Below are positions 7,698 to 39,978 of a stretch of DNA of 41,266 nucleotides, in pieces. Numbering within the stretch: position 1 is the stretch's first letter; the number at the start of each line of letters is the position of its first letter. The stretch comes from a virus. Taxonomy: Duplodnaviria > Heunggongvirae > Uroviricota > Caudoviricetes. Position numbers and translations under genes: made by a program. Under the pieces are notes generated by a model. It was not told the DNA's origin. It worked only from the letters and a program-made list of their open reading frames with translations, and ran no database searches. The stretch lies in IMG/VR virus record IMGVR_UViG_2534681675_000019. The stretch is one strand, 5' to 3'.

Positions 7698-8479
7698 ACA
7701 ACGTTTTTACCGCGATACAAAACCGTGACGGAGAAGCCCTTTCTCGCATGTCAGGTTATGAGCATCAGTACACCAACAATGACAACGTGGTGAACATGTC
7801 AGCAGAGAGGCTTGTTGATGCCCTTTTCAAACAGCTGAAACAACTGTTTCCGGCGGCAGTGGTAACCAACCTGAAGAGGCCAGAGCAGGAAGTCGCTGCA
7901 AAACAGCAGTGGATTGCTGCGTTTGCTGAAAGTGGGATCCGAACCCGTGAACAGGTTTCTGCTGGTATGCGCCACGCCCGCGCCAGTGAATCTCCGTTCT
8001 GGCCGTCGCCAGGGCAATTCATCAAGTGGTGTAAAGACAGCAAGATGGTTCTTGGCGTCACCATTGACGATGTGATGGCGGAGTTTCATCGGTACAGCAA
8101 GGAAAAAAGTTTATATCCTGGTGGTCCCGAAAGATTCCCGTGGCGACATCCGGTTATGTACTGGGTCGTATGTGATACCCGCCGTGCAATGTATCAGCGC
8201 CAGCTTAGCGAGATTGAGGTTGAGAAACACGCGCGCAGGCTGCTCGATGATTGGGCGAAAAAGGTGGCTTCCGGACAGCAGATACCCGATCCGGTGATCA
8301 GCATACAGGCAAAGCCAGAGCCCATGAGTACACCTCCGGACACAGGGAGAGACGTTTACCATCCACCAGGGCGAAGTTTCGGGTGCATGCCTAACGCCGC
8401 CACCCTTGGGGGAATAACACCGGCGCAGTGGCTGATGGAGGAATACAGGCGGGGAAAGGCGGCAGGATTTATCAAGTAA
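7679..8479 (+). CDS. Replication protein, lambda P-like (helicase loader)
   Basis: Central block ...WIAAFAESGIRTREQVSAGMRHARA...PFWPSPGQFIKWCKD resembles lambda P (from memory). Likely true start is GTG 7694, after a GGAGGA Shine-Dalgarno. Confidence 0.65.
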   Translation: MGGFLVNNVFTAIQNRDGEALSRMSGYEHQYTNNDNVVNMSAERLVDALFKQLKQLFPAAVVTNLKRPEQEVAAKQQWIAAFAESGIRTREQVSAGMRHARASESPFWPSPGQFIKWCKDSKMVLGVTIDDVMAEFHRYSKEKSLYPGGPERFPWRHPVMYWVVCDTRRAMYQRQLSEIEVEKHARRLLDDWAKKVASGQQIPDPVISIQAKPEPMSTPPDTGRDVYHPPGRSFGCMPNAATLGGITPAQWLMEEYRRGKAAGFIK

Positions 8480-8516
8480 TACCAGCGCGATAGCGCATTT
8501 TTTTACGCCTATATGA

Positions 8517-8593
8517 TTACCTTGTAGGTAATAAAATGTTCTAATTACTATTGATTTCATGTCTTATGTGGTTTTTAATTACCTAAGGGGTAA
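8517..8593. promoter_or_regulatory. Two TTACC-N5-GGTAA sites upstream of the nin-like gene block
   Basis: 8517-8531 TTACCttgtaGGTAA and 8579-8593 TTACCtaaggGGTAA; the second overlaps the ribosome-binding region of the 8597 gene. Confidence 0.5.
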
Positions 8594-8596
8594 ATC

Positions 8597-23827: not shown

Positions 23828-24291
23828 TGATTGATGTTCAAATTATTCCCGCTACCGAAGAGCATCTTCAGATGATTTTGCCGGATGTTCGTCAGGCTGA
23901 TATTGACGAACTGTATGCGGTATCGCTGATGACTACCGAAGATGCGCTGCGCGTTGGTCTTCGCACTGCGACTATGGCCTGGTCAGGGTTCGCGAACGGA
24001 GAACTGGTAACCATGTTTGGTGTATCTCCGGCGTCAATGATCGGTGGCAATGGTACGCCCTGGCTGGTAGGAACCAGCCGTATTGAAAAATATCAGAAGA
24101 CATTTCTTCGCCACTGCCACCCTGTATTGCGGCAGATGCTGGCAGTTTATCCGCGCCTGGAAAACTACGTCGACGAGCGAAACCATGTTGCCAAAGCATG
24201 GCTCCACTGGCTTGGATTCAGGCTTGAAGAAGCCGCGCCTTATGGTGCTCTTGGTCTTAATTTCCACAGATTTCACATGGAGAGAAAATAA
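23827..24291 (+). CDS. Internal virion protein (small)
   Basis: 154 aa, translationally coupled in the core gene block. Confidence 0.4.
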   Translation: MIDVQIIPATEEHLQMILPDVRQADIDELYAVSLMTTEDALRVGLRTATMAWSGFANGELVTMFGVSPASMIGGNGTPWLVGTSRIEKYQKTFLRHCHPVLRQMLAVYPRLENYVDERNHVAKAWLHWLGFRLEEAAPYGALGLNFHRFHMERK

Positions 24292-24836
24292 TGTGCGATC
24301 CGGTTATTGCTGGTGGCGCAATGCTCGCCATGAGTGGCATTCAGGCATACACCCAGTACCAACAGGGAAAGTATGCCTCGAAGGTTGCAGAAGCGAACGC
24401 AGATATAGCCACAGCTCAGGCAAATGATGCAATAAACAGGGGTAACGCTGAAGCTGAGCAACGGCGCAGAGAGACCCGACAGCGGCTTGGTACACAGGCA
24501 GCGACAATGGGGGCTACCGGCGCTGATTTATCTACAGGTAACGCGCTGGATATATTTGGCGACACTGCCCAGTTTGGCGCTCTTGATTCGCTGACGACGG
24601 TGAATAACGCGCAACGCGAGGCTTACGGTTATCAGGTTCAGGCTGCCAACTATAAAGCAGAAGCCAGTTCAGCCCGTAAACAGGGGAATGTGGGAGCAGC
24701 AACAACATTGCTCACTGCGCCTCTGAAGGCATACGGTGCGTACCAGATGTTTGGTGGGACGTGGAGTCCGTTTACTCAAAGCACCCCTGCGCCAATCGGG
24801 GCAGCAGCAGGAACCAGATTACCCGGAGGATTATAA
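24291..24836 (+). CDS. Internal virion protein (small, Ala/Gln-rich)
   Basis: 181 aa, translationally coupled. Confidence 0.4.
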   Translation: MCDPVIAGGAMLAMSGIQAYTQYQQGKYASKVAEANADIATAQANDAINRGNAEAEQRRRETRQRLGTQAATMGATGADLSTGNALDIFGDTAQFGALDSLTTVNNAQREAYGYQVQAANYKAEASSARKQGNVGAATTLLTAPLKAYGAYQMFGGTWSPFTQSTPAPIGAAAGTRLPGGL

Positions 24837-27349
24837 TGCCAGTCGTACCAACAGTATCCGGACGCCAGGTTGAGAGCCGTGGAGTTCAGTCAGCAGGCTT
24901 GCAGACGTTTTCTCAGCCAGGTATTGGTGATGCTTTTGTTCGGGCAGGGACAGAGGCAATTGATGTTTTGGGGCAGGCAAAACAGCGTGCCAATATCGCT
25001 CTGGCTCAGGAGGCATCTCTTAACCTCAGTCAGATAAGCAGTGATCTGCTGAATAACCCTGAAACAGGTTTGCTTAACCTGAAAGGGAAAAATGCTATTG
25101 GAAAAGGCCATGAGTATACGCAGCAGTTTGATGCTCAGGTCGAACAACTGGCTATGTCGCTGCCGGATGAACAGGCTCGTAATGCTTTCATGCAGCAGGC
25201 GCAGCAGCAGCGCATTCAGTTCACTACGCAGGCCGGGCGGCACGAGATAGGGCAAATTAATGCCTACGAAGAAGGTCAGTTTCAGGCGACGCTGCTGAAC
25301 AATGGTAAAAATGCCGCAGCATTGTATGGCGACAATGCCGCATACGTATTGGCTAATAAGCAAACTTTCCAGCAAATTGAGGAGTACGGTGCTGCACATG
25401 GCTGGAGCGACGAGCAAATACAGGCCAAGAAAATCGAGTTTAAAGAGAAGGTTGCTGATGCAGCATTGTCCCAGTGGTCGGCAAACAATGCGACCGCATT
25501 CATCCAAAGTAATGGCGAGTTAAGTGATACTGCTGCTGGAGCTCGCCGTGCTGTAACAGATAGTGGCTCTTCCGAGCGTGTCCGTGGCATACGCAACAAT
25601 AACCCCGGAAATCTCGAATACAGCAAAACTAATCCGTGGGTAGGCCAGACCGGTGATGATGGTAGATTTGCTAAATTCGAAACACCTGAACACGGGATTC
25701 GTGCATTAGGGCGGAACCTGATGTCGTATCAGCGGCAGGGTATTGATACCGTCAGCGAGATAATTAATCGCTGGGCACCGCCTACTGATAAAAATGACAC
25801 TATGTCGTATATCAAAGCAGTGTGCGAACAACTTGGCGTTTCTGCTGATGAGCCTCTCGATGCATCAAATCCTGATACCCTGAAGGCGCTTTGTGCAGCC
25901 ATTATCCATCATGAGAACGGTAGCCAGCCATACAGTGATCAGCAGTTAACTGCTGGTGTCAGTGCAGCACTTGGTTTATCAACAATTCCAACCAACACCA
26001 AACGCTATACCGGTAATGCAGCATTCGATGCGGCATCTCCTGAGGCTCAGGCAAGTTTTATGCGGCAGGCGGATCAACTGCGTCGGCAGCAGCAGGCTGA
26101 ATATAAAACGATGATTGACAGCCAGGTTCGCGATGCGACGGCTGCGTATATGCGTGGCGTTGAATTTCCTAACCCACCTGGTGAGGCTGATTTTATTGCA
26201 GCTTATGGAGTCAGAGAAGGAAACCTGCGATATACCGAGTTTAAGAATACGCAGATCGCCGGACAGTATATAGGCTCTTTCCGCAACATGCCGACAAGCA
26301 GCATTACAGCATATGTTGAGCAATTACGCCCGGATACTGGTGAGACAGGGGAGGGTTATGCGGCTCGCGCAGCTCTTTATGACAACGTTGTTTCGGCTGC
26401 AAATCAGGTGATAAAGCAGCGGCAGTCTGATCCTGTGCAGTTCTCTCTTGCCTCTGGACAGGCAAAGCCTATCGACATGAGCAATAAGGATAACTTTGGA
26501 CAGAGCGTTGCCTTGCGTGCCGCTCAGGTCAGTGACCTTGCTAAGTCATATGGCACTCCACTGACGTTCTTTTCCAAAGACGAGGCCAATCAGATCGGTG
26601 TTTTTTTTCGTGATGCTCCAGTTTCCCAACAGGCAGCATATCTCGATACCATCAGGCAGAGCACTGGTGGTGGGCAGGTGTATATGTCAGCACTACAGCA
26701 GATCAGTGCCAACGCTCCATCTGCTGCCGTTGCCGGGATACTGATGGACAAGCCTGGTGGTATTTTGGCAGAAAAAAACTGGTTTAATCCGGATGTTTCC
26801 GTGTCTCCTGAAACCGCTGCGCAGACAATTCTTACTGGCGCGGCGGCTCGTAAAGGTACTGATGATGCGAAAGGTATTCCGATGCCTAAAGATGCTGATC
26901 TTCGCCTTGAGTTTTCTGACATGGTGAAGGATGCATTTGCTGGTGATGCTCAGGGGGCATCAATGGCATACGAGATCGCAAAGGACTATTACGCTGGTGT
27001 GATGGCGAAAAAAGGCGTGATATCAGGCGAAATTGACACTGATATCTGGAAACAGGCTGTTAACGTAGCTACAGGTGGCGTGCATGACTATAACGGAATG
27101 GGGAATGTCCTTTTGCCGTGGGGAATGTCTGCAGAGCAATTCGATAAGCAGGTTAATCAGGCTTGGAATGAACAAGTTGTCGGCTCCGGGATAAAAACAC
27201 CGCCTGGTCAGTATGGTTTGCAAAGTTACGGCGATAGTCAGTACCTGGTGAAACTTGGTACTGGTTATCTGCTGAAAGATGATGGTTCTCCCGTTGTTCT
27301 TAATCTGACACAGAAACGTCAGAGATTCTCCGGAGATATTCCGCAATGA
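24836..27349 (+). CDS. Large internal virion/ejection protein
   Basis: 837 aa from ATG 24836 (overlaps the previous stop); contains a conserved-looking block GIRNNNPGNLEYS...FAKFETPEHGIRALGRNL...RWAPP of unknown function. Confidence 0.45.
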   Translation: MPVVPTVSGRQVESRGVQSAGLQTFSQPGIGDAFVRAGTEAIDVLGQAKQRANIALAQEASLNLSQISSDLLNNPETGLLNLKGKNAIGKGHEYTQQFDAQVEQLAMSLPDEQARNAFMQQAQQQRIQFTTQAGRHEIGQINAYEEGQFQATLLNNGKNAAALYGDNAAYVLANKQTFQQIEEYGAAHGWSDEQIQAKKIEFKEKVADAALSQWSANNATAFIQSNGELSDTAAGARRAVTDSGSSERVRGIRNNNPGNLEYSKTNPWVGQTGDDGRFAKFETPEHGIRALGRNLMSYQRQGIDTVSEIINRWAPPTDKNDTMSYIKAVCEQLGVSADEPLDASNPDTLKALCAAIIHHENGSQPYSDQQLTAGVSAALGLSTIPTNTKRYTGNAAFDAASPEAQASFMRQADQLRRQQQAEYKTMIDSQVRDATAAYMRGVEFPNPPGEADFIAAYGVREGNLRYTEFKNTQIAGQYIGSFRNMPTSSITAYVEQLRPDTGETGEGYAARAALYDNVVSAANQVIKQRQSDPVQFSLASGQAKPIDMSNKDNFGQSVALRAAQVSDLAKSYGTPLTFFSKDEANQIGVFFRDAPVSQQAAYLDTIRQSTGGGQVYMSALQQISANAPSAAVAGILMDKPGGILAEKNWFNPDVSVSPETAAQTILTGAAARKGTDDAKGIPMPKDADLRLEFSDMVKDAFAGDAQGASMAYEIAKDYYAGVMAKKGVISGEIDTDIWKQAVNVATGGVHDYNGMGNVLLPWGMSAEQFDKQVNQAWNEQVVGSGIKTPPGQYGLQSYGDSQYLVKLGTGYLLKDDGSPVVLNLTQKRQRFSGDIPQ

Positions 27350-29153: not shown

Positions 29154-31628
29154 ATGAGACAGGAATGTATACAAGCGGTCCAGCAGGCGGCGCAGCGCAC
29201 GTTAACGGCGCGAGAAATACAGAACATTGAAGACCGCATTTATCGAAATATGCGCTCCATTGCTCGTGATGACCCGATGTCGTGGCGACAACTTTCCGAA
29301 TCAGAACGGTTGTATCGTGCAGCACAATTGGCATCTGAAGAATTACAGCGAGAAGCGGCATTAAAGAAACGTCGTGTGGCCCTCACTATAGCCGCACGTC
29401 AGAGATTGGATAAATTTATCAATAGCTATCAAGGGGCTGATGGGAAACTTGGCGCTCTTAACCGTACTATTGCTTTTAATGCAGACGGTAAATCGAATTT
29501 CCTCTCTGTTGAATCCAGAACAAAAGCCACCCGTGATTATGCATTGAGTCAATTGCAGGAGGCATTCGAAGCAGTTGATCCTCGCTTTTTTGGTCTGTTT
29601 GAAGATGAAGCGGGCGTACGTGACCTGGTATATGAAATGCGGGGGCAAAATACTGGCAATGCTAAAGCAAGAAAAGGTGCTAAGGCGTGGAGAGAAGTTA
29701 CAGAGCTGCTGCGCCGCCGGTTTAATGATGCTGGTGGGGACATTGGCTATCTCGAAAACTGGGGGATCCCTCAACATCATTCTATGGAAAAGGTTGGGGC
29801 GGTATCAAAAGATAAATGGGTTAGCGATGTTATAGGTAAGCTGGATCGCAAATATTATACCCGAGCCGATGGACAACTGATGAACGATGCCGAGTTGTCT
29901 GCATTTCTTGGAGAGGCTTATAACACGATCGCTACTGGTGGGCTGAATAAGCTTACTGATACCGGAATGCGAATTTCCGGCGCACGTGCTAACCGTGGTA
30001 ATGCATCACGACAGATACATTTCAAAGATGCAGATTCCTATCTGCAATATCAGCAACTTTATGGCGATCGCTCTCTATGGGAAATCATGGTCGGTCACCT
30101 TGAAGGTATCAGTAAAGATATTGCACTGGTGGAAACATATGGCCCAAACCCCGATCATGTTTTCCGCTCTCTTCTTGATCAGGTGAAGGCAGAAACGGCA
30201 ACAGCTAACCCGAGTAAAACCGGTAAAGTCGAGCGGCTGGCGAACAACACAGAGAATCTGTACAACTTTATTTCCGGAAAGACACAGCCTGTAGCGAATC
30301 CGCACATCGCGCGATGGTCTGACAATATCCGCAACTGGCTGGTTGCCAGCAGACTCGGATCCGCGTTGCTGTCATCGTTCTCTGATCTTGGAACCATGTA
30401 TCTGTCTGCGAAGGTGACCAACCTTCCAATGAACCAGTTATTCCGCAACCAGCTTGAAGCTATGGACCCAACGAACCGTACAGAACTTGCGCGGGCGCGC
30501 CGCGCTGGTCTGGCGATGGAATCTCTACTTGGCAGCGTTAACCGCTGGGCGATGGATAATATGGGGCCGTCAGTGTCTCGTTGGGCGGCAAAGGCGGTAA
30601 TGCGTGCCAGTGGGCTTACAGCATGGTCAGATGCGCACAAGCGCGCCTATGGCGTAACCATGATGGGAAGCCTGGGAGAAGTAGTGTCACGGACACCAGA
30701 CCTTCGTAGCCTCGATGACTCTGATTTTCGTATCCTGAAAAGCAAAGGGATTACTGACACAGACTGGAGCGTATGGAAGCTGGCGCAACAGGAGGACTGG
30801 GGGAACGGTAATAATACGATGCTGACACCGGAAAGCATTATGCGTATCCCTGATTCAGCAGTTAAACATCTTGGTGAGCCTGAACGCGTGAAATTTGAGG
30901 CAATGCGTAAACTGCTCGGTGCCGTAACTGAAGAAGTTGATATGGCTGTTATTACACCGGGAGCACGTGAGCAACTGATAACCGGTTCTGGTATTCAGCG
31001 TGGAACATGGAAAGGTGAATTAACGAGAAGTGTTTTCCTGTTTAAATCGTTCCCTATCTCGGTGGTTATGCGTCACTGGTCACGCGCTATGGGTATGCCG
31101 TCTGCTGGTGGGCGTGCGGCATATATTGCGACGTTTATTGCCAGCACGACCATTCTTGGCGCTTTGTCTCAGCAACTTAACGACCTTGCGTCTGGTCGTA
31201 ATCATCGCGAGATGACAGGAGAAGATGCTGCTAAATTTTGGCTTGGTGCTCTACTGAAAGGTGGTGGTCTTGGCCTTTACGGTGACTTTTTATTGTCAGA
31301 TCACACTAGGTACGGAAGCGGCGCGCTGGCGTCGATGCTTGGCCCGGTAGCTGGTCTGGTTGATGACGTAGTGAAGATTGCTCAGGGCATACCGTTAAAT
31401 GCTGTGGAAGGGAAGAATGAGCAGACTGGTGGTGATCTGGTTAAGCTGGGGAAAGGTCTGATGCCAGGTGCGAATCTCTGGTACTTAAAGGCGGCTCTCG
31501 ATCACATGATCTTTAACCAGATGCAGGAGTATTTTTCACCAGGCTATTTGCGTAAAATGGAGCAACGTTCGAAGAAAGAGTTTAACCAGACATACTGGTG
31601 GCGACCTCAGGATGTCACTCCGCAATAA
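29154..31628 (+). CDS. Large internal virion/ejection protein
   Basis: 824 aa, GAGAGG Shine-Dalgarno; last large gene of the core block. Confidence 0.45.
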   Translation: MRQECIQAVQQAAQRTLTAREIQNIEDRIYRNMRSIARDDPMSWRQLSESERLYRAAQLASEELQREAALKKRRVALTIAARQRLDKFINSYQGADGKLGALNRTIAFNADGKSNFLSVESRTKATRDYALSQLQEAFEAVDPRFFGLFEDEAGVRDLVYEMRGQNTGNAKARKGAKAWREVTELLRRRFNDAGGDIGYLENWGIPQHHSMEKVGAVSKDKWVSDVIGKLDRKYYTRADGQLMNDAELSAFLGEAYNTIATGGLNKLTDTGMRISGARANRGNASRQIHFKDADSYLQYQQLYGDRSLWEIMVGHLEGISKDIALVETYGPNPDHVFRSLLDQVKAETATANPSKTGKVERLANNTENLYNFISGKTQPVANPHIARWSDNIRNWLVASRLGSALLSSFSDLGTMYLSAKVTNLPMNQLFRNQLEAMDPTNRTELARARRAGLAMESLLGSVNRWAMDNMGPSVSRWAAKAVMRASGLTAWSDAHKRAYGVTMMGSLGEVVSRTPDLRSLDDSDFRILKSKGITDTDWSVWKLAQQEDWGNGNNTMLTPESIMRIPDSAVKHLGEPERVKFEAMRKLLGAVTEEVDMAVITPGAREQLITGSGIQRGTWKGELTRSVFLFKSFPISVVMRHWSRAMGMPSAGGRAAYIATFIASTTILGALSQQLNDLASGRNHREMTGEDAAKFWLGALLKGGGLGLYGDFLLSDHTRYGSGALASMLGPVAGLVDDVVKIAQGIPLNAVEGKNEQTGGDLVKLGKGLMPGANLWYLKAALDHMIFNQMQEYFSPGYLRKMEQRSKKEFNQTYWWRPQDVTPQ

Positions 31629-31637
31629 GGAACAACA

Positions 31638-32051
31638 ATGAAGGAATTATTGCTGTTATCGGTATTTTTGATATCCGCTTGCTCGACATCCTATGATGTT
31701 TATGACGGTGTTGATAAGGCATATTGCGACAAGGTTAAAATGGATTTTTCTCTTGCCAAGACGGCGAAGGATAGTTGTATTGATCACTACGTCAAGACTT
31801 ATACCAAGTCAGCATCATCGGCATCTGATATTGCTGAAGGTGCTGTGTTTGAGTGTAACAAGGTGATATCCATCGCAGCGAGTTCTTCATACGATGCTGC
31901 TGTATGTGCAATGGCTGAAAGAAACGGCATGTCTGTGCAAAAAGTTAATAGCATGATAAACAGTAATGACGAAGCCAAAATAAGAACTGATATCAGCTCG
32001 GTGAAAAAAGATGCCATGAACAGAGTTGTAAAATATCAGTCATCTTTATAA
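31638..32051 (+). CDS. Lipoprotein (signal peptide with lipobox LISAC)
   Basis: 137 aa; MKELLLLSVFLISAC; AAGGAA Shine-Dalgarno; last gene of the late operon before a terminator. Confidence 0.6.
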   Translation: MKELLLLSVFLISACSTSYDVYDGVDKAYCDKVKMDFSLAKTAKDSCIDHYVKTYTKSASSASDIAEGAVFECNKVISIAASSSYDAAVCAMAERNGMSVQKVNSMINSNDEAKIRTDISSVKKDAMNRVVKYQSSL

Positions 32052-32054
32052 GTC

Positions 32055-32090
32055 GTGACATGTCACAGGCCGCTTTCGCGGCCTTTAAAT
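32055..32090 (+). terminator. GTGACATGTCAC palindrome (copy 3) plus intrinsic terminator
   Basis: Palindrome 32055-32066, then stem GGCCGC/GCGGCC with loop TTTC (32068-32083) followed by TTTAAATTT. Confidence 0.55.
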
Positions 32091-32348
32091 TTACCGGGTT
32101 TGTTTTCGTAATTGTTCGGCACAATAGTCGAGATGTGTTTGCAGATCCTGCATAGACATCTGTGAGCTGGTGACGTAGTTAATCAGTGCAGTCAGTTCGG
32201 CAAGTGGGCCATCGACATTAAATCCATCCTTATCGAGATCCCGGAGTAATTTCATCAAGTGCGATCCTTCCACCAGTGACCTGACGCCTCCCGGCGTGTG
32301 AATCCTTTCGGTAAATCCCTCTTCCAGTGGATAGTGATACTGCTGCAT
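32091..32348 (-). CDS. Small LexA-box-associated protein (antirepressor candidate)
   Basis: 85 aa from ATG 32348 (GGAG 8 nt upstream); a near-consensus LexA box lies 20 bp upstream. The 126-aa track ORF would contain the box and is rejected. Confidence 0.5.
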   Translation of the reverse strand: MQQYHYPLEEGFTERIHTPGGVRSLVEGSHLMKLLRDLDKDGFNVDGPLAELTALINYVTSSQMSMQDLQTHLDYCAEQLRKQTR

Positions 32349-32367
32349 CTTATCTTCTCCATGCAAT

Positions 32368-32387
32368 AACTGTATGTTTATACAGTA
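32368..32387. promoter_or_regulatory. LexA (SOS) box
   Basis: AACTGTATGTTTATACAGTA matches TACTGTATATATATACAGTA at 17 of 20 positions, with CTGT-N8-ACAG intact and an AT-rich spacer; overlaps a TATAAA -10-like hexamer on the minus strand. Confidence 0.65.
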
Positions 32388-32424
32388 GCAAATAATTTGT
32401 TTGCTATCCAGCACGTTTTGCGAA

Positions 32425-32439
32425 TCACCTGAAAGGTAA
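32425..32439. promoter_or_regulatory. TCACC-N5-GGTAA site in the divergent region between the small gene and the tailspike
   Basis: TCACCtgaaaGGTAAT; 37 bp from the LexA box. Confidence 0.45.
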
Positions 32440-32543
32440 TATCTGCTCACATTAACACTCTTTCCATCCATATATGGTTTTTCAGGTAATAGAATAACCA
32501 GATATGCGGCGCAACGGGTGCTGCGACTATCTGGAGATTTAAC

Positions 32544-34796
32544 ATGACGGTCTCAACCGAAGTTGACCACAACGAATACACAGGCAATGGCGTTACGACT
32601 TCATTCCCTTATACCTTTAGGGTTTTCAAGGAATCTGATCTGGTAGTGCAGGTGGTTGACCTTGACGAAAATATCGCTGTGCTGGCTCTTGATACTGATT
32701 ACACTGTCACTGGGGCTGGTGGATATAACGGCGGTAATGTAATTCTGTCGAAGGCGTTAGCTAACGGTTACCAGATTTCTATATCACGAGAGCTCCCGGT
32801 TACGCAGGAAACTGATTTGCGTAATCAGGGGAAGTTCTTTGCAGAAGTGCATGAGGATGCTTTTGATAAGCTAACGATGCTGATCCAGCAGGTTCGAAGT
32901 TGGTTTAGCTTGGCGCTGCGCAAGCCGTCATTCGTAGCAAATTATTATAACGCGCTGAACAACTATATTCGGAACCTGAAAGACCCGGTTAACCCGCAGG
33001 ATGCAGCCACAAAGAATTATGTGGACAGCACGGCTTTATCGAACATCAACCATACCATCCGAGTTCCTGACGCTTATATCGATCCGCTGCCACCACTCGC
33101 TCAGCTTGAAGGCAGCATTATCGGCATTCAAAACGGGAAGCCTGTTCCTTTCCCTGTGCCTTCAGGAACGGCGGCGGACGTATTCAACCAGTTGGCCAGC
33201 AGCGCTGACGGGAAAGGTGATGCGCTGATAACAGTGAAGCAGCCTTACCAGGGGGCAACTTCTCTTTCGCAGCATATAAAAAATGCACAGGCTATAAGTG
33301 TTGTTGATTTTGGAGCGACAATTGATGGATCTCTCCACCCTTTAAGTGAAGTTTTCTCAACACTCTCAGCGGCACAGATGGTATATCCATTTGTTACGTC
33401 TCTCACGCAATCGTTGGATTATGCGGCGCTGCAGGCCGCATGTAATACTGGTAAAAAGGTGCTAATCCCAAAAGGTCTTGGATATTATAATGCCACAATT
33501 ATATTTAATAATTCAGTCAGAATTGTTGGTGAAGGGACTGATGCAATAAACCGTTCTCAGTCTTTCATGTCAATTGTTGGGAATATATCAGCCTTCGCAT
33601 TAGCTCAGGGTAGCTCAACATCAACGAAAATGATCCAGATTTTCATTGATGGCCTTTATATCTTTTATAACCCTGGCTCTACCCCAACAAACTCATCAAC
33701 AGACGGCGGCAAGGTAGCTTTTAATTTCTACTCAACAGTCCCTAATTCTACTGGGCTGGAAATGTCAGAAATTAAAAATTGTACAGTTCATGGGGCGTGG
33801 TCGTGCTTTAATGACCAGACAGGAACCTATCTTACAAAGCTTACGAATGTGTGGGCCAGGAACTGTCATAATGGTTTTACCAAAGGAACTGGCACAACAA
33901 TCCTTCTGGAAAGATGTTATGCATCTGGTTGTATTTCTCCTTACCAGTTTGGTTCTGTCTTCGCGGTTACAATGATTAACTGCGCGATGGATGGATCAAA
34001 TATTTCATTAAGCGCCGGGACGCTTGGAGGGGCTGGAGTTCACATCCTTAACACGCACAGTTTCAATATTATTGGCTTTGATGCAGAGGGAAACACCATC
34101 TCTACGGATGGAGCTGGAGAAGCTGCGCTGTTCCATTTTGAGAATAGTAGTGGTGGCTTATCCGGGCTTACCGCACATCAGAACAGCATGCGAAGTGTTG
34201 CGCCAAGTGATGCTGGTGTAGTTTCCTACATCAGGGCGTCAGGTAGCAGCGATGTTAAAATTGAGTCATCAGAAGATGATTTATCTGACACCAACCCAGT
34301 TGCATATACTGGGTCTGGGTATCCCATTATGTTACATGCAATAGACACAGCTAAAATAAGTGTCTTTAATAGCCGGTTCAGAGCAACCACTACAGGAACT
34401 CCTGTTTTAAGTACGCTAAGTACTGGTGATGTATCATGGTATGACTGCCCTAAAAAAACAGGACTTATCGCCAATGGTTACTCGCAGACTACATCTCAGG
34501 AAGGGTTGCAAACATCATGCTTCTCTACCAGTAAAGGCTCTACTTCTGTGGCTGCAAATACCCCGACAACACTTTTTTCTCTGCCAAATTCTCAAGGCAC
34601 TTACATTATCAGCGTTTGGGGATCTGGTAGTGGGACAAACTATGCGTCAACGCAGTTAGCAATGTATGATGGAACTTTGTATCTTACGGCATTGAAAGCT
34701 GCAGCGTTCCTGACATTTACTGTAACCGGAAGAATAGTAACCCTGACGAGCCAGGGGGCTGGAACTTTTAGTTGGACTTACACGAAAATAGGTTAA
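32544..34796 (+). CDS. Tailspike/tail fiber with T7 gp17-like N-terminal adaptor domain
   Basis: 750 aa; N-terminal YTGNGVTTSFPYTF...TDYTV...RELPVTQETDL...AEVHEDAFDKL parallels the T7 gp17 N-terminus (from memory); the C-terminal two-thirds is visibly AT-rich and Ser/Thr/Gly/Asn-rich, consistent with a receptor-binding module. Confidence 0.7.
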   Translation: MTVSTEVDHNEYTGNGVTTSFPYTFRVFKESDLVVQVVDLDENIAVLALDTDYTVTGAGGYNGGNVILSKALANGYQISISRELPVTQETDLRNQGKFFAEVHEDAFDKLTMLIQQVRSWFSLALRKPSFVANYYNALNNYIRNLKDPVNPQDAATKNYVDSTALSNINHTIRVPDAYIDPLPPLAQLEGSIIGIQNGKPVPFPVPSGTAADVFNQLASSADGKGDALITVKQPYQGATSLSQHIKNAQAISVVDFGATIDGSLHPLSEVFSTLSAAQMVYPFVTSLTQSLDYAALQAACNTGKKVLIPKGLGYYNATIIFNNSVRIVGEGTDAINRSQSFMSIVGNISAFALAQGSSTSTKMIQIFIDGLYIFYNPGSTPTNSSTDGGKVAFNFYSTVPNSTGLEMSEIKNCTVHGAWSCFNDQTGTYLTKLTNVWARNCHNGFTKGTGTTILLERCYASGCISPYQFGSVFAVTMINCAMDGSNISLSAGTLGGAGVHILNTHSFNIIGFDAEGNTISTDGAGEAALFHFENSSGGLSGLTAHQNSMRSVAPSDAGVVSYIRASGSSDVKIESSEDDLSDTNPVAYTGSGYPIMLHAIDTAKISVFNSRFRATTTGTPVLSTLSTGDVSWYDCPKKTGLIANGYSQTTSQEGLQTSCFSTSKGSTSVAANTPTTLFSLPNSQGTYIISVWGSGSGTNYASTQLAMYDGTLYLTALKAAAFLTFTVTGRIVTLTSQGAGTFSWTYTKIG

Positions 34797-35104
34797 TGTT
34801 ATTTTAGGGGAGCGATGCTCCCCATCATCAATTAAAAAATAAACTGTCCATCATTTTTTAGTTTTTTACCAAACTCCCTTGAGCCTTCCAGAGTGAAATG
34901 GCTATTGTCAAAGTAAAGATAATCACCTTTCTTTGATAGAATGTCACAATTCATAGCCTTTCCGCACTGCTCGGCAAGCGTATCTATGTATTTATACGAA
35001 TGCTGGTTGCTACTAGACTGGCCCCCTGAATCTCCAGACAACCAGTATCACTTAAATAAGTGATAGTCTTAATACTAGTTTTTAGACTAGTCATTGGAGA
35101 ACAG

Positions 35105-35470
35105 ATGATTGATGTCTTAGGGCCGGAGAAACGCAGACGGCGTACCACACAGGAAAAGATCGCAATTGTTCAGCAGAGCTTTGAACCGGGGATGACGGTC
35201 TCCCTCGTTGCCCGGCAACATGGTGTAGCAGCCAGCCAGTTATTTCTCTGGCGTAAGCAATACCAGGAAGGAAGTCTTACTGCTGTCGCCGCCGGAGAAC
35301 AGGTTGTTCCTGCCTCTGAACTTGCTGCCGCCATGAAGCAGATTAAAGAACTCCAGCGCCTGCTCGGCAAGAAAACGATGGAAAATGAACTCCTCAAAGA
35401 AGCCGTTGAATATGGACGGGCAAAAAAGTGGATAGCGCACGCGCCCTTATTGCCCGGGGATGGGGAGTAA
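35105..35470 (+). CDS. insC: IS2 transposase OrfA (InsC)
   Basis: 121 aa, [24 protein letters not shown]...; HTH; ends just past the AAAAAAG frameshift site. Confidence 0.85.
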
Positions 35471-36333
35471 GCTTAGTCAGCCGTTGTCTCCGGGTGTCGC
35501 GTGCGCAGTTGCACGTCATTCTCAGACGAACCGATGACTGGATGGATGGCCGCCGCAGTCGTCACACTGATGATACGGATGTGCTTCTCCGTATACACCA
35601 TGTTATCGGAGAGCTGCCCACGTATGGTTATCGTCGGGTATGGGCGCTGCTTCGCAGACAGGCAGAACTTGATGGTATGCCTGCGATCAATGCCAAACGT
35701 GTTTACCGGATCATGCGCCAGAATGCGCTGTTGCTTGAGCGAAAACCTGCTGTACCGCCATCGAAACGGGCACATACAGGCAGAGTGGCCGTGAAAGAAA
35801 GCAATCAGCGATGGTGCTCTGACGGGTTCGAGTTCTGCTGTGATAACGGAGAGAGACTGCGTGTCACGTTCGCGCTGGACTGCTGTGATCGTGAGGCACT
35901 GCACTGGGCGGTCACTACCGGCGGCTTCAACAGTGAAACAGTACAGGACGTCATGCTGGGAGCGGTGGAACGCCGCTTCGGCAACGATCTTCCGTCGTCT
36001 CCAGTGGAGTGGCTGACGGATAATGGTTCATGCTACCGGGCTAATGAAACACGCCAGTTCGCCCGGATGTTGGGACTTGAACCGAAGAACACGGCGGTGC
36101 GGAGTCCGGAGAGTAACGGAATAGCAGAGAGCTTCGTGAAAACGATAAAGCGTGACTACATCAGTATCATGCCCAAACCAGACGGGTTAACGGCAGCAAA
36201 GAACCTTGCAGAGGCGTTCGAGCATTATAACGAATGGCATCCGCATAGTGCGCTGGGTTATCGCTCGCCACGGGAATATCTGCGGCAGCGGGCTTGTAAT
36301 GGGTTAAGTGATAACAGATGTCTGGAAATATAG
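35428..36333 (+). CDS. insD: IS2 transposase OrfB (InsD), DDE catalytic domain
   Basis: 301 aa, [30 protein letters not shown]...; overlaps orfA in the -1 frame at AAAAAAG (35422-35428). Confidence 0.85.
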
Positions 36334-38063
36334 GGGCAAATCCAGCTACCAAGATAGCCTTTTATCGTATTGTTAATTTCAACTCTACTATTGTCATAAT
36401 ACTTTTTAGAGTATTTATTTATCCCATCAATTGTGTTTACGCCAGATTTAAAAGCAGACTTAATTATTTCCATTGGCTGTGCCGTAAACTTCATCTTAGG
36501 CCCAAATACAATAACTTCTCCTTTAGTCCTCTCCTGTATTTTGCCTATAGAGTAAAGCATCCCGAACAGATCGCCAACGCCATAATCATCATGAAGGATT
36601 ATAATGTTAGCTTCAGCTATGGCTGGAGATGAGATCACGTCATTGAATATTTTTTTGCACTTTTCTACATAGGGCATGTCGTTTGGTGTATAACCAAAGT
36701 TTGAACATAAGTTTGTAGTTCTTATATAAGTTATATCACCCTTCATCCCATTTTCAGTAAGTGCATAAGTCAGATCTATGCCATGAGAATTACCGATTAT
36801 TACTATTTTTTTGTCACCTGTCTTCGGTACAGGGTGAGGCTTGTCTCCATCAACCCAATACCTGTTCATTTGTTCTTTTAGCTGTTCGGACGTCATTGTG
36901 GCAAACGAAAACCTTGATGGAATTCCAGATAGCAATAGTACAGCGAAGCACAAACCAACTACACCACCTACAGGTAGCACGATTGAAGTTAATTCATTCA
37001 AGGACCTGCCGTTTTTAAATTTTGAAAGTGCCTTTCTTGAAGGGTTTTCAATTAAATAAAATGATGCGGCACCAATAAGAATTGATAAGGCAACACCTGA
37101 TACTGTATAAACCATATCATCCATCTTATTCATTGACATATAGACAACTATGGGCCAGTGAACCAGATATACCGAGTATGAAATTTTCCCAACCCATTGA
37201 GATAATGCATTATCAAGTAACAGGTTATCTTTACATCCAAGATAAATGACAAAGAAAGTAGAAACGACTGGTATTAAGGCAAGATACCCAGGCCACTTCA
37301 TTAAGCTGTTAAGCAAGACTATCCCCGATACTGCAAAGGCTATGGCAATCCATCTAAATACAGCAGTGCGTTTTGAATTTTGTATAGTAGGAAGAAGGTA
37401 GGCAAGGCCGCCAGCCAGCATCTCCCAAGCTCTGCTTGACAGAAGATAAAATGCAGCCCCCTGATTATTATAAGAAAGATACACTGAGGCAGTAAATGAT
37501 ATAATTGCAAGGATGGCAACAACATACCTTATATGCTTAGCGCCCAATAGCTTTGCAATTGCCATCATTATGATTGGATATACCATGTAAAACTGCCACT
37601 CTACAGAAAGCGACCATGTATGAAGAAGCCATTTCTGCTTTGATGCAGTGTCAAAATAATCAATGCTATGGTAATACTCAACGTTTGAGAAAAATAAAAG
37701 GCTACTTCTTACGTGTTGAGCCAGGTATTCATATTCAGAAGGCAAAAGAATGAAGTAACCAACTATCAGAACAGCAACTGAAACTACAGTTAAAGCTGGT
37801 ATAATCCTTCTTGCCCTATCAAGATAAAATCCTAACAGTGAAAAGTTTCCATTAGATATCTTTGTGTAAATTATTCCAGTCATCAGATACCCTGATATAA
37901 CAAAGAATATATCTACGCCTGAAAACCCACCAGAAAACCCTTTGACTCCGAAGTGATAAAGGACAACTGCCATGACAGCAATAGCCCTGAGTCCGCCTAT
38001 ATCAGTTCTGTATTTTAAAGAAGACATAATCGCTATCGTTTTGAGTAAGATGCGTTAATGATA

Positions 38064-38883: not shown

Positions 38884-39499
38884 ACAATTCCAGCGAGCTG
38901 CTGGTATTAGCGAGGCGCTGGCCGCACGCTGGTTCTCGCATATAACTTCTGCGATGAAAGAGTTTGGTATCAGCAAACCAGAAGATCAGGCAATGTTTAT
39001 TGCTCAGGTCGGGCATGAGTCTGGAGGCTTCACCCGGCTGCAGGAGAACTTCAACTACAGCGTGACTGGGCTGGCGGGATTCGTCCGTGCCGGGCGCCTC
39101 ACTCAGGGCCAGGCCAACGCGCTGGGCCGTCGTGCTGGTGAGCCATCGTTACCGCTGGAGCGCCAGCGTGCGATCGCCAATCTGGTGTATAGCAAGCGCA
39201 TGGGGAACAACGGGCCGACTGACGGCTGGTTTTACCGTGGGCGCGGGCTTATCCAGATTACCGGTTTGAATAACTATCGTGACTGCGGAAACGGTCTAAA
39301 AGTGGACCTGCTGGAGAATCCTGAGCTGTTGACGCAGGACGAATACGCGGCCCGCAGCGCGGCGTGGTTCTTCGCCAGTAAAGGTTGTATGAAGTATCCA
39401 CGCGACCTGGTGCGCGTCACGCAGATTATCAACGGTGGCCAGAACGGTATCGACGACCGGCGATCGCGTTACGGTGCTGCCTGTAAGGCGCTGTTATGA
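38873..39499 (+). CDS. Endolysin, glycoside hydrolase family 19-type
   Basis: 208 aa; [10 protein letters not shown] and [15 protein letters not shown] blocks characteristic of GH19 lysozymes. Confidence 0.8.
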
Positions 39500-39978
39500 T
39501 CTGGGCATTTGTCAAAGCATACTGGAAACAGTTGCTTATCATGGCGATGCTTGCTGCGCTGGTTGTCATCGGTGTGGTTGCCTGGAATGTTCACGGTGAC
39601 CTGCAGTATGCCGCCGGCTATGAGCAGGCAAAGACAGACCGTAAAGCCCAAGATGATAAAGCTCGTCAGCACTACGAACAGGAGAAATCGATCAATGAAC
39701 GTGAAGTGCAGCAGAGGATCGACCAGGCGCGCAATGATGCTCTTGATGCTGCCGCTCGCGCTGGCCGGTTGCAGCAACAGCTCGTTGCCATCCGTGAGCA
39801 GCTCAGGCACTATAACGCCATTGTCGGCGCTGGGTCGTCAGCCGCAGATACCGGAGTTTTGCTTGCCGACGTGCTCAGCAAATCTCTCGAGAGAAACAGA
39901 CAACTGGCAGAGTATGCTGACCGGGCAGCCGAAGCCGGAAGAGTCTGCGAAAAACAGTACGACACCCTGACCAGATAG
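39496..39978 (+). CDS. Rz-like inner-membrane spanin
   Basis: 160 aa; N-terminal transmembrane helix then coiled-coil; start overlaps the endolysin stop. Confidence 0.6.
39734..39970 (+). CDS. Rz1-like outer-membrane lipoprotein spanin, embedded in Rz in the +1 frame
   Basis: 78 aa, [17 protein letters not shown] (lipobox LAGC), Pro-rich mature part, fully inside the Rz gene. Confidence 0.55.
   Translation: MMLLMLPLALAGCSNSSLPSVSSSGTITPLSALGRQPQIPEFCLPTCSANLSRETDNWQSMLTGQPKPEESAKNSTTP

Follow-up and report, generated by a model that had tools for sequence, protein, structure and literature searches.

A predicted lipoprotein in an exchangeable slot behind the ejection genes of a phiV10-like Escherichia coli prophage, possibly an accessory exclusion factor

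The prophage and the gene behind its ejection operon

By its sequence, the window (the whole stretch of DNA that was analysed, 41,266 nucleotides in length) is a prophage of Escherichia coli of the phiV10/epsilon15-like type (Uetakevirus). An open reading frame for a 137-aa protein lies between a gp17-like gene and a hairpin that is followed by a convergent gene. The features of this region, and the upstream gene that helps to place it, are:

24291..24836, plus strand: T7 gp14-family internal virion protein (PF24072, 31.2 bits against a cut-off of 27)
29154..31628, plus strand: gp17-like virion/ejection protein of 824 aa, the conserved left flank (PHROG 684; 99% identical to phiV10 p20)
31626..31631, plus strand: Shine-Dalgarno sequence TAAGGA (sequence; overlaps the TAA stop codon of the gp17-like gene)
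31632..32053, plus strand: exchangeable cassette (DNA alignment with phiV10 and PAS61; GC contrast)
31638..32051, plus strand: predicted lipoprotein gene, 137 aa, PHROG 8691 (profile match and dN/dS)
31638..31679, plus strand: predicted signal peptide, residues 1-14, with n-region K2 and h-region LLLLSVFLI (sequence; model pLDDT <50 for residues 1-16)
31668..31682, plus strand: lipobox L-I-S-A-C, with Cys15 the predicted lipidated residue (sequence and nine family representatives)
31725..31907, plus strand: twin CX16C motif, C30, C47, C73 and C90 (invariant spacing in the family; AF2 helices 24-55 and 62-96)
32067..32084, plus strand: putative hairpin terminator AGGCCGC-TTTC-GCGGCCT (between convergent genes, common to the four slot alleles)
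32091..32471, minus strand: epsilon15 gp19-like gene, convergent, the conserved right flank (PHROG 450; C-terminal similarity to antirepressors)

The open reading frame, which starts with ATG, is a real, functional coding sequence. Its 28 copies comprise 10 DNA alleles, and comparison with the two that have diverged most gives dN/dS values of 0.05-0.07, a sign of strong purifying selection. Its G+C content is 39%, compared with 49% for the whole window. The strong ribosome-binding site that an earlier note on this DNA had placed right after the virion gene is borne out by the sequence: TAAGGA is a six-base match located 6 nt ahead of the ATG, and it shares bases with the stop codon (31626-31628) of the gp17-like gene. 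The distance from the gp17-like stop codon to the start of the next open reading frame is 9 nt in all allele classes (112 loci). The lipoprotein gene thus appears to be translationally coupled to and co-transcribed with the gp17-like gene.

Three large genes on the 5' side are 98-99% identical to p19, p20 and neighbouring genes of phiV10. The gp17-like protein belongs to PHROG 684, annotated as 'virion structural protein', and the T7_gp14 family gene is located three genes 5' of the gp17-like gene. In a Cedecea relative, the gp15-like protein has an SLT domain. Together, the T7_gp14 member, the SLT-bearing Cedecea protein and the PHROG 684 assignment indicate that the operon encodes a T7-type ejectosome. 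That the lipoprotein gene directly follows the gene of the last internal virion protein, as had been claimed, is a reasonable reading of homology and gene order, not a result of proteomics.

The gp15-like protein of the window (862 aa, 24761-27349) is listed with a GTG start that overlaps the gp14-like gene; its true start is likely to be the ATG at 24836 (MPVVPTVSGRQ...). It contains a segment of the RGIRNNNPGNLEY type. No muralytic or SLT domain was matched in it by Pfam, unlike its Cedecea and metagenomic counterparts.

On the 3' side are the convergent gp19-like gene, a tailspike gene (32544-34796), an O-antigen acyltransferase gene and a lysis cassette. The lysis cassette is complete, with two holins, a GH19 endolysin and a DUF2514 i-spanin (39496-39978) that has an o-spanin embedded in its +1 frame; the o-spanin is proline-rich with the lipobox LALAGC, and is listed only within a longer TTG-started open reading frame (39509-39970). 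An o-spanin or other lysis lipoprotein was considered for the 137-aa protein and rejected, since the lysis cassette, approximately 7.5 kb away, has its own embedded o-spanin; the mature lipoprotein contains no proline in the allele of the window.

Two further features of the prophage are an insertion sequence and a tRNA gene. A copy of IS2 (1330 bp, 35015-36344, with InsC/InsD open reading frames at 35060-36333) is flanked by an intact 5-bp target duplication, GCTAC, at 35010-35014 and 36345-36349. It splits the O-antigen acyltransferase gene into a main part (36258-38027, minus strand) and a C-terminal piece (34832-35041, minus strand), and lysogenic conversion by O-acetylation has probably been inactivated in this strain. 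A tRNA-Arg gene with anticodon TCT is found inside the prophage at 15176-15252 on the minus strand (ARAGORN; 73 bits with Rfam).

Transcription and termination

A 56-nt segment that includes the hairpin at 32067-32084 folds with a predicted minimum free energy of -16.5 kcal/mol. The phiV10 annotation marks the same hairpin as a terminator, and it is conserved on the 3' side of all four alleles described below. Its U-tract is interrupted (UUUAAAUUU), so that the terminator that was said to follow the gene is plausible rather than textbook.

The lipoprotein gene is co-directional with the late operon. No sigma-70-like promoter was detected on the plus strand at 31000-31637, approximately 640 nt upstream, by a scan for the consensus sigma-70 sequence, which would miss weak or non-sigma-70 promoters. 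Silent changes are not depleted over the final 150 nt of the gp17-like gene, and the synonymous-site test thus gave no sign of a conserved embedded promoter in this low-divergence set, in which most sequences are more than 96% identical and power is limited. Because neither a promoter nor synonymous constraint was detected upstream, expression in the lysogen is unsupported; the gene arrangement suggests that the lipoprotein may be expressed only late.

Sequence features, fold and family of the lipoprotein

The N-terminus, MKELLLLSVFLISAC, consists of a charged n-region (K2), a hydrophobic core and the lipobox L-I-S-A-C ending at Cys15. It fits the lipobox pattern [LVI][ASTVI][GAS]C, in which the cysteine falls in approximately the first 15-35 residues. 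Read by eye, it conforms to the PROSITE-type lipoprotein rule, and the charged n-region, h-region and lipobox that characterize bacterial lipoproteins are kept in all nine family representatives. The description of this lipobox as canonical holds: the cysteine (codon 31680-31682) is retained in every homologue down to 26% identity. As the motif persists over this range, in the forms ISAC, LSGC, IVGC and LFGC, it is no chance match. The homologue P0020 scored 17.9 bits against Pfam LPAM_1, below the cut-off of 20. Under the Lol rules, aspartate at position +2 is a Lol-avoidance signal, and serine or threonine leads to sorting to the outer membrane. The residue at +2 after Cys15 is serine, and serine or threonine occupies this position in nine of nine family representatives; with no Asp avoidance signal, the lipoprotein is expected to reside in the outer membrane.

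The protein matches PHROG 8691, a family without an assigned function, over residues 1-137 of 137 (E 7.5e-91). The independently built PHROG 8691 profile also finds the homologues P0020, P0024 and P0022 (E 1e-8 to 1e-11). The family is small: 17 clusters were obtained from a search of 5.8 billion proteins, and six matches from an exhaustive HMM search of 1.8 billion representatives. Scanning of GTDB genome contigs with degenerate patterns yielded zero confirmed loci. Identity falls to 26% among the remote members (P0018, P0020, P0021/P0024 and P0022), and the members keep a length of 137-142 aa, the lipobox, Ser or Thr at +2 and four cysteines. The cysteines have an invariant spacing, C-X16-C-X24/25-C-X16-C, across the family, for which the term twin CX16C is used here; in the window their codons are 31725-27 (C30), 31776-78 (C47), 31854-56 (C73) and 31905-07 (C90).

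The window protein (pLDDT 85) and P0020, which is 26% identical to it (pLDDT 86), were modelled independently with AF2 and have the same helical topology. Past the lipid-bearing cysteine come a linker of 7-8 residues and a helix of approximately 32 residues; the second helix is long and kinked, the third short, and the fourth forms the C-terminus. Beyond the signal peptide the protein lacks hydrophobic segments, and pLDDT exceeds 90 in the soluble helical domain. The cysteines are in register, residue numbers 30 + 90 being equal to 47 + 73, from which we infer that disulfides C30-C90 and C47-C73 would staple antiparallel helices 1 and 2. Given the short tether, the geometry of the model implies that the domain would have to act close to the periplasmic face of the outer membrane.

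Neither Pfam nor NCBIfam nor PADLOC has a model for this family. Matches to linker histone, T4_Spackle, TrkA, MTase_II and EexN were rejected, all being far below threshold. With PADLOC-DB v2, the window protein had only a spurious MTase_II match (E 0.0094, 12.8 bits), and its homologues and the proteins of the other slot alleles had none. Fold searches found no structural relatives, and a profile search of PDB sequences yielded nothing beyond designed helical repeats and matches of the signal peptide to TraN and Llp.

An exchangeable slot with four envelope-protein alleles

Homology between the window and phages phiV10 and PAS61 runs through ...GCAATAAGGA (TAAGGA) and resumes at CGTGACATGTCACAGGCC, just 5' of the hairpin. 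In the same interval, these two isolated phages encode a 46-aa protein with two transmembrane helices. The slot was surveyed at 112 loci, including 80 IMG/VR contigs anchored solely on the gp17-like C-terminus, and genomes were counted among 5426 complete E. coli genomes, of which 320 have the 3' end of a gp17-like gene. Four alleles, all encoding envelope proteins (membrane proteins or lipoproteins), account for 315 of these 320:

Allele A: 46-aa two-helix peptide; 54 of 5426 complete E. coli genomes
Allele B: 57-aa two-helix protein and 98-aa multi-helix membrane protein (PHROG 3075); 205 genomes, the commonest
Allele C: 137-aa lipoprotein of the window; 22 genomes, the rarest
Allele D: 41-aa membrane peptide and unrelated 126-aa lipoprotein (MRKVFLIFGFMLLVGC..., PHROG 3716), of the APEC O1 type; 34 genomes

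Examples of the other cassettes are L030 3838-4429 (E. coli APEC O1), L034 5612-6095 and L001 4239-4379. The lipoprotein of allele C is also encoded on 26 IMG/VR contigs, and tblastn found no copy of it in 50,697 deposited phage records.

Between the gp17-like proteins of the window and of phiV10, an allele-A phage, identity is 99%, and over the C-terminal 200 aa the window protein matches allele-A contigs such as L032 at 100%. With the gp17-like proteins of most other lipoprotein carriers it shares only 96-97% identity. This closer relationship to allele-A backbones indicates that the cassette has moved between backbones by means of flanking homology. A second point of variation between the ejection genes and the tailspike is indicated by additional genes in some carriers: most other lipoprotein carriers have approximately 2-5 kb of reverse-strand genes between the terminator and the gp19-like gene, whereas in the window and in NZ_OZ547033.1 the terminator directly adjoins the gp19-like gene. 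In L013, the additional genes (8414-10394, compared with 32051-32091 of the window) encode an unannotated 211-aa protein and a 281-aa antirepressor of the Bro-N type.

The earlier note had offered cargo, as distinct from a structural component, as one identity of the gene, and this part of its proposal stands. Because the cassette is precisely swapped with the 46-aa gene, has four alleles, is AT-rich and is found in 0 of 50,697 phage records, the assignment of the lipoprotein gene to a cargo cassette, and not to the virion genes, is well supported by sequence comparison. Deviant base composition and patchy presence (22 of 320 genomes) are shared with morons; the scan for an own promoter found none, and the terminator is common to all slot alleles. 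The position of the gene, last in the virion operon and coupled to the gene of a virion protein, might otherwise have suggested a minor virion or ejectosome component packaged with the gp14-17-like proteins. This is very improbable: a lipoprotein exported by Sec and processed by Lgt leaves the cytoplasm, where heads are assembled; isolated phages that do not have it are viable; unrelated proteins replace it in 93% of related prophages; and homologues are found on plasmids. A virion role was thus rejected on topology and allelic replacement.

Another explanation is that the lipoprotein assists the lytic cycle of its own phage, as a modulator of lysis or envelope breakdown, or by conditioning the envelope and debris so that progeny are spared futile ejection, while live cells are not protected. 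The gene points the same way as the last virion gene and begins 2-9 nt from it, with overlapping Shine-Dalgarno sequence and stop codon and with no promoter detected, and the four envelope-protein alleles are placed identically, one of their proteins having a weak holin-like Pfam match (E 0.047). All of this would suit such a helper. The interchange of proteins that are unrelated to one another, among them a two-helix peptide, a multi-helix membrane protein and two lipoproteins, argues against a defined role, the lysis cassette is already complete, and the plasmid and island homologues described below have no lytic cycle. On balance, a lytic helper is quite unlikely.

Homologues in other phages, islands and plasmids

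Close homologues (95-99% identity) occupy the same slot in E. coli, Citrobacter and Enterobacter. A Cedecea homologue (54%) starts 2 nt past the gp17-like gene. P0022 (26%) and P0018 (44%) are also found on the 3' side of gp17-like genes, and these share just 26-27% identity with the gp17-like gene of the window; in the P0022 phage, a secreted 191-aa protein is encoded between the gp17-like gene and the homologue. The retention of a gp17-like neighbour at 26-27% identity indicates that linkage to the ejectosome has persisted over deep divergence. In the metagenomic phage contig L122, an array of approximately seven copies of (CCATAAA) was observed at 2170-2226, right past the stop codon of a homologue 26% identical to the window protein.

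In Providencia and Morganella, P0020 and P0023 are stand-alone genes in integrative islands of the int-AlpA-DUF3987-YfjJ type. These Morganellaceae homologues are just 25-26% identical to the window protein, and their link to defence is guilt by association. Their island neighbours include by PADLOC the Gabija protein GajB (E 5e-121) with an OLD/TOPRIM ATPase, type I restriction-modification with PDC-S11, type III restriction-modification, a DruE-like helicase with NERD/UvrD, and E1-E2/mad3-like genes. In six island contigs (L113-L115 and L123-L125), the homologue is located at 8001-8420, at the edge of variable cargo, and remnants of insertion sequences are often found immediately upstream.

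Col3M is the replicon type that carries qnrD. P0024 (29% identical) is a backbone gene of Col3M small plasmids in Proteus and Providencia. On NZ_CP135992.1 (L126, 2428 bp) the homologue, at 263-691, is one of two annotated open reading frames, the other encoding 146 aa; on NZ_CP066834.1 (L127, 4044 bp) it is located at 365-793. Among the plasmid relatives, one is accompanied by a Wzz/GNVR-like gene and another by a Qnr-like gene. In papers on qnrD plasmids, the plasmid open reading frames are labelled hypothetical. The literature searched contained no mention of WP_000661386, of the slot after the gp17-like gene or its four alleles, of the family in defence islands or on 2.4-kb plasmids, or of exclusion by Uetakevirus beyond O-antigen modification.

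The distribution of the family bears on the further explanation that the protein is an envelope conversion or immunity factor with no link to phage entry, carried because the host benefits, for instance a periplasmic protein that inhibits, or confers immunity to, toxins that degrade peptidoglycan (bacteriocins, T6SS effectors), or a lipoprotein of the Bor/TraT kind for resistance to serum or stress. Its presence on three unrelated mobile elements (prophages, integrative islands and Col3M plasmids) suits a generic benefit to the host. The small periplasmic domain, predicted to be disulfide-stabilized, and the Wzz/GNVR-like or Qnr-like genes beside the plasmid relatives also speak for a conversion factor. 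Against this, the phage copies are tied to the ejection operon across deep divergence, apparent late expression would be odd for a gene that benefits the lysogen, and the searches that were run found no similarity to known immunity or inhibitor families. A conversion factor is therefore considered unlikely.

Comparison with known exclusion and accessory proteins

Several phage proteins resemble the window protein in location, position or design. T5 Llp and Cor (phi80, N15 and HK022) are, like it, small phage lipoproteins predicted to be at the inner leaflet of the outer membrane, accessory and dispensable for virion formation, with a disulfide-containing periplasmic domain expected. T5 Llp is reported to be a lipoprotein of the inner leaflet of the outer membrane that blocks FhuA, and is argued to act in lytically infected cells and debris. 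Profile and fold searches found no similarity in sequence or fold between the window protein and Llp, Spackle, SieA or Ltp, and homology to the mature domain of T5 Llp in particular was absent.

The P22 gene sieA directly follows the ejection genes and is near antirepressor-type, tailspike and O-antigen conversion genes (7-20-16, sieA, antirepressor, tailspike, O-antigen conversion on the P22 map), a neighbourhood like that of the window gene. SieA proteins comprise several unrelated sequence types; they act on the ejection proteins gp16 and gp20, to which escape from them maps (PMC10883804). In contrast to the predicted outer-membrane lipoprotein of the window, P22 SieA is a multi-pass inner-membrane protein; it is encoded on the opposite strand, has its own promoter and is expressed in the lysogen, whereas the window gene is co-directional with the late operon and no promoter was detected for it.

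T4 Spackle is likewise a small, exported, helical, disulfide-containing periplasmic phage protein, and relatives of the prophage have an SLT domain in an ejection protein that could in principle be inhibited by such a protein. However, Spackle is soluble and unlipidated, and the window protein scored 11.1 bits against T4_Spackle (PF25676), for which the threshold is 27 (E 0.61), in a match that includes the signal peptide. Ltp of Streptococcus phage TP-J34 is a prophage lipoprotein with an all-helical domain that is reported to block DNA injection by acting on a protein of the incoming phage's delivery apparatus (PMC3952083). It differs from the window protein in having a Gram-positive host, in being surface-exposed, in its unrelated fold of helix-turn-helix repeats, and in its location in the lysogeny module with expression from the prophage.

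Like the morons HK97 gp15 and lambda bor, the gene is an accessory gene that differs in base composition from the late structural genes around it and is present in some close relatives and absent from others. A classical moron, however, is transcribed independently from a promoter of its own, whereas the window gene is an allelic cassette in a fixed slot, with a shared terminator and coupling to a virion gene.

Proposed role in the exclusion of related phages

The superinfection-exclusion reading suggested in the earlier note is plausible on circumstantial evidence: linkage to the ejectosome, a sieA-like neighbourhood, defence-gene neighbours and the precedent of Llp favour it. It is proposed tentatively, at a little less than an even chance, that the lipoprotein is an outer-membrane-anchored periplasmic accessory protein that blocks the entry of related phages. 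Several considerations weigh against this. Classical exclusion genes such as sieA are marked by expression in the lysogen, which is unsupported for the window gene. The searches revealed no resemblance to Llp, Spackle, SieA or Ltp and no PADLOC model, and the homologues beside defence genes are remote. Uetakeviruses already exclude by O-antigen modification, so that a second layer would be unneeded a priori.

As deduced from its sequence, the precursor would be exported by Sec and lipidated at Cys15, displaying a compact helical domain of approximately 13 kDa, built on a helix-turn-helix stapled by two disulfides of the twin CX16C motif, on a tether of 7-8 residues. If exclusion is the function, this domain would act at the periplasmic face of the outer membrane to keep phages of the same kind from delivering their DNA. 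It might interfere with the T7 gp14/15/16-type ejection conduit as it emerges through the outer membrane, following the logic of SieA, or it might lock an outer-membrane component needed by the phage, following that of Llp and Cor. The four interchangeable envelope cassettes would be consistent with diversifying exclusion specificities. Since the gene is apparently co-transcribed and coupled with late ejection genes, action may occur mainly in lytically infected cells and their debris, where it would protect the infection and its progeny rather than the resting lysogen.

A broader and more speculative form of the proposal is that twin-CX16C lipoproteins are a portable, unrecognized class of anti-injection proteins, anchored in the outer membrane, directed against the T7 gp14/15/16-type ejectosome of epsilon15/phiV10-like podoviruses and distributed across prophages, defence islands and 2.4-kb plasmids, with the slot maintaining a balanced four-allele polymorphism of distinct, late-expressed exclusion specificities. 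In its full extent this is improbable.

Implications for short-tailed phages and their hosts

The twin-CX16C lipoproteins represent an undescribed sequence and fold family that would act like a known kind of protein, the accessory envelope proteins with which phages exclude competitors. Should the protein have no such role, it would be one more small prophage open reading frame without an assigned function. The conduit by which short-tailed phages pass DNA across the cell envelope is still poorly understood. If exclusion is confirmed, the lipoprotein would be an outer-membrane-side counterpart, for short-tailed phages, to P22 SieA, and escape mutants would offer a way to identify the ejection protein that contacts the outer membrane from the periplasm. 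The four-allele slot, found in approximately 6% of complete E. coli genomes, offers a natural experiment on the diversification of envelope genes in temperate podoviruses. That the family is also found on Col3M plasmids and in defence islands, in Proteus, Providencia and Morganella, points to a trait that can be transferred and may be relevant to phage therapy and phage typing.
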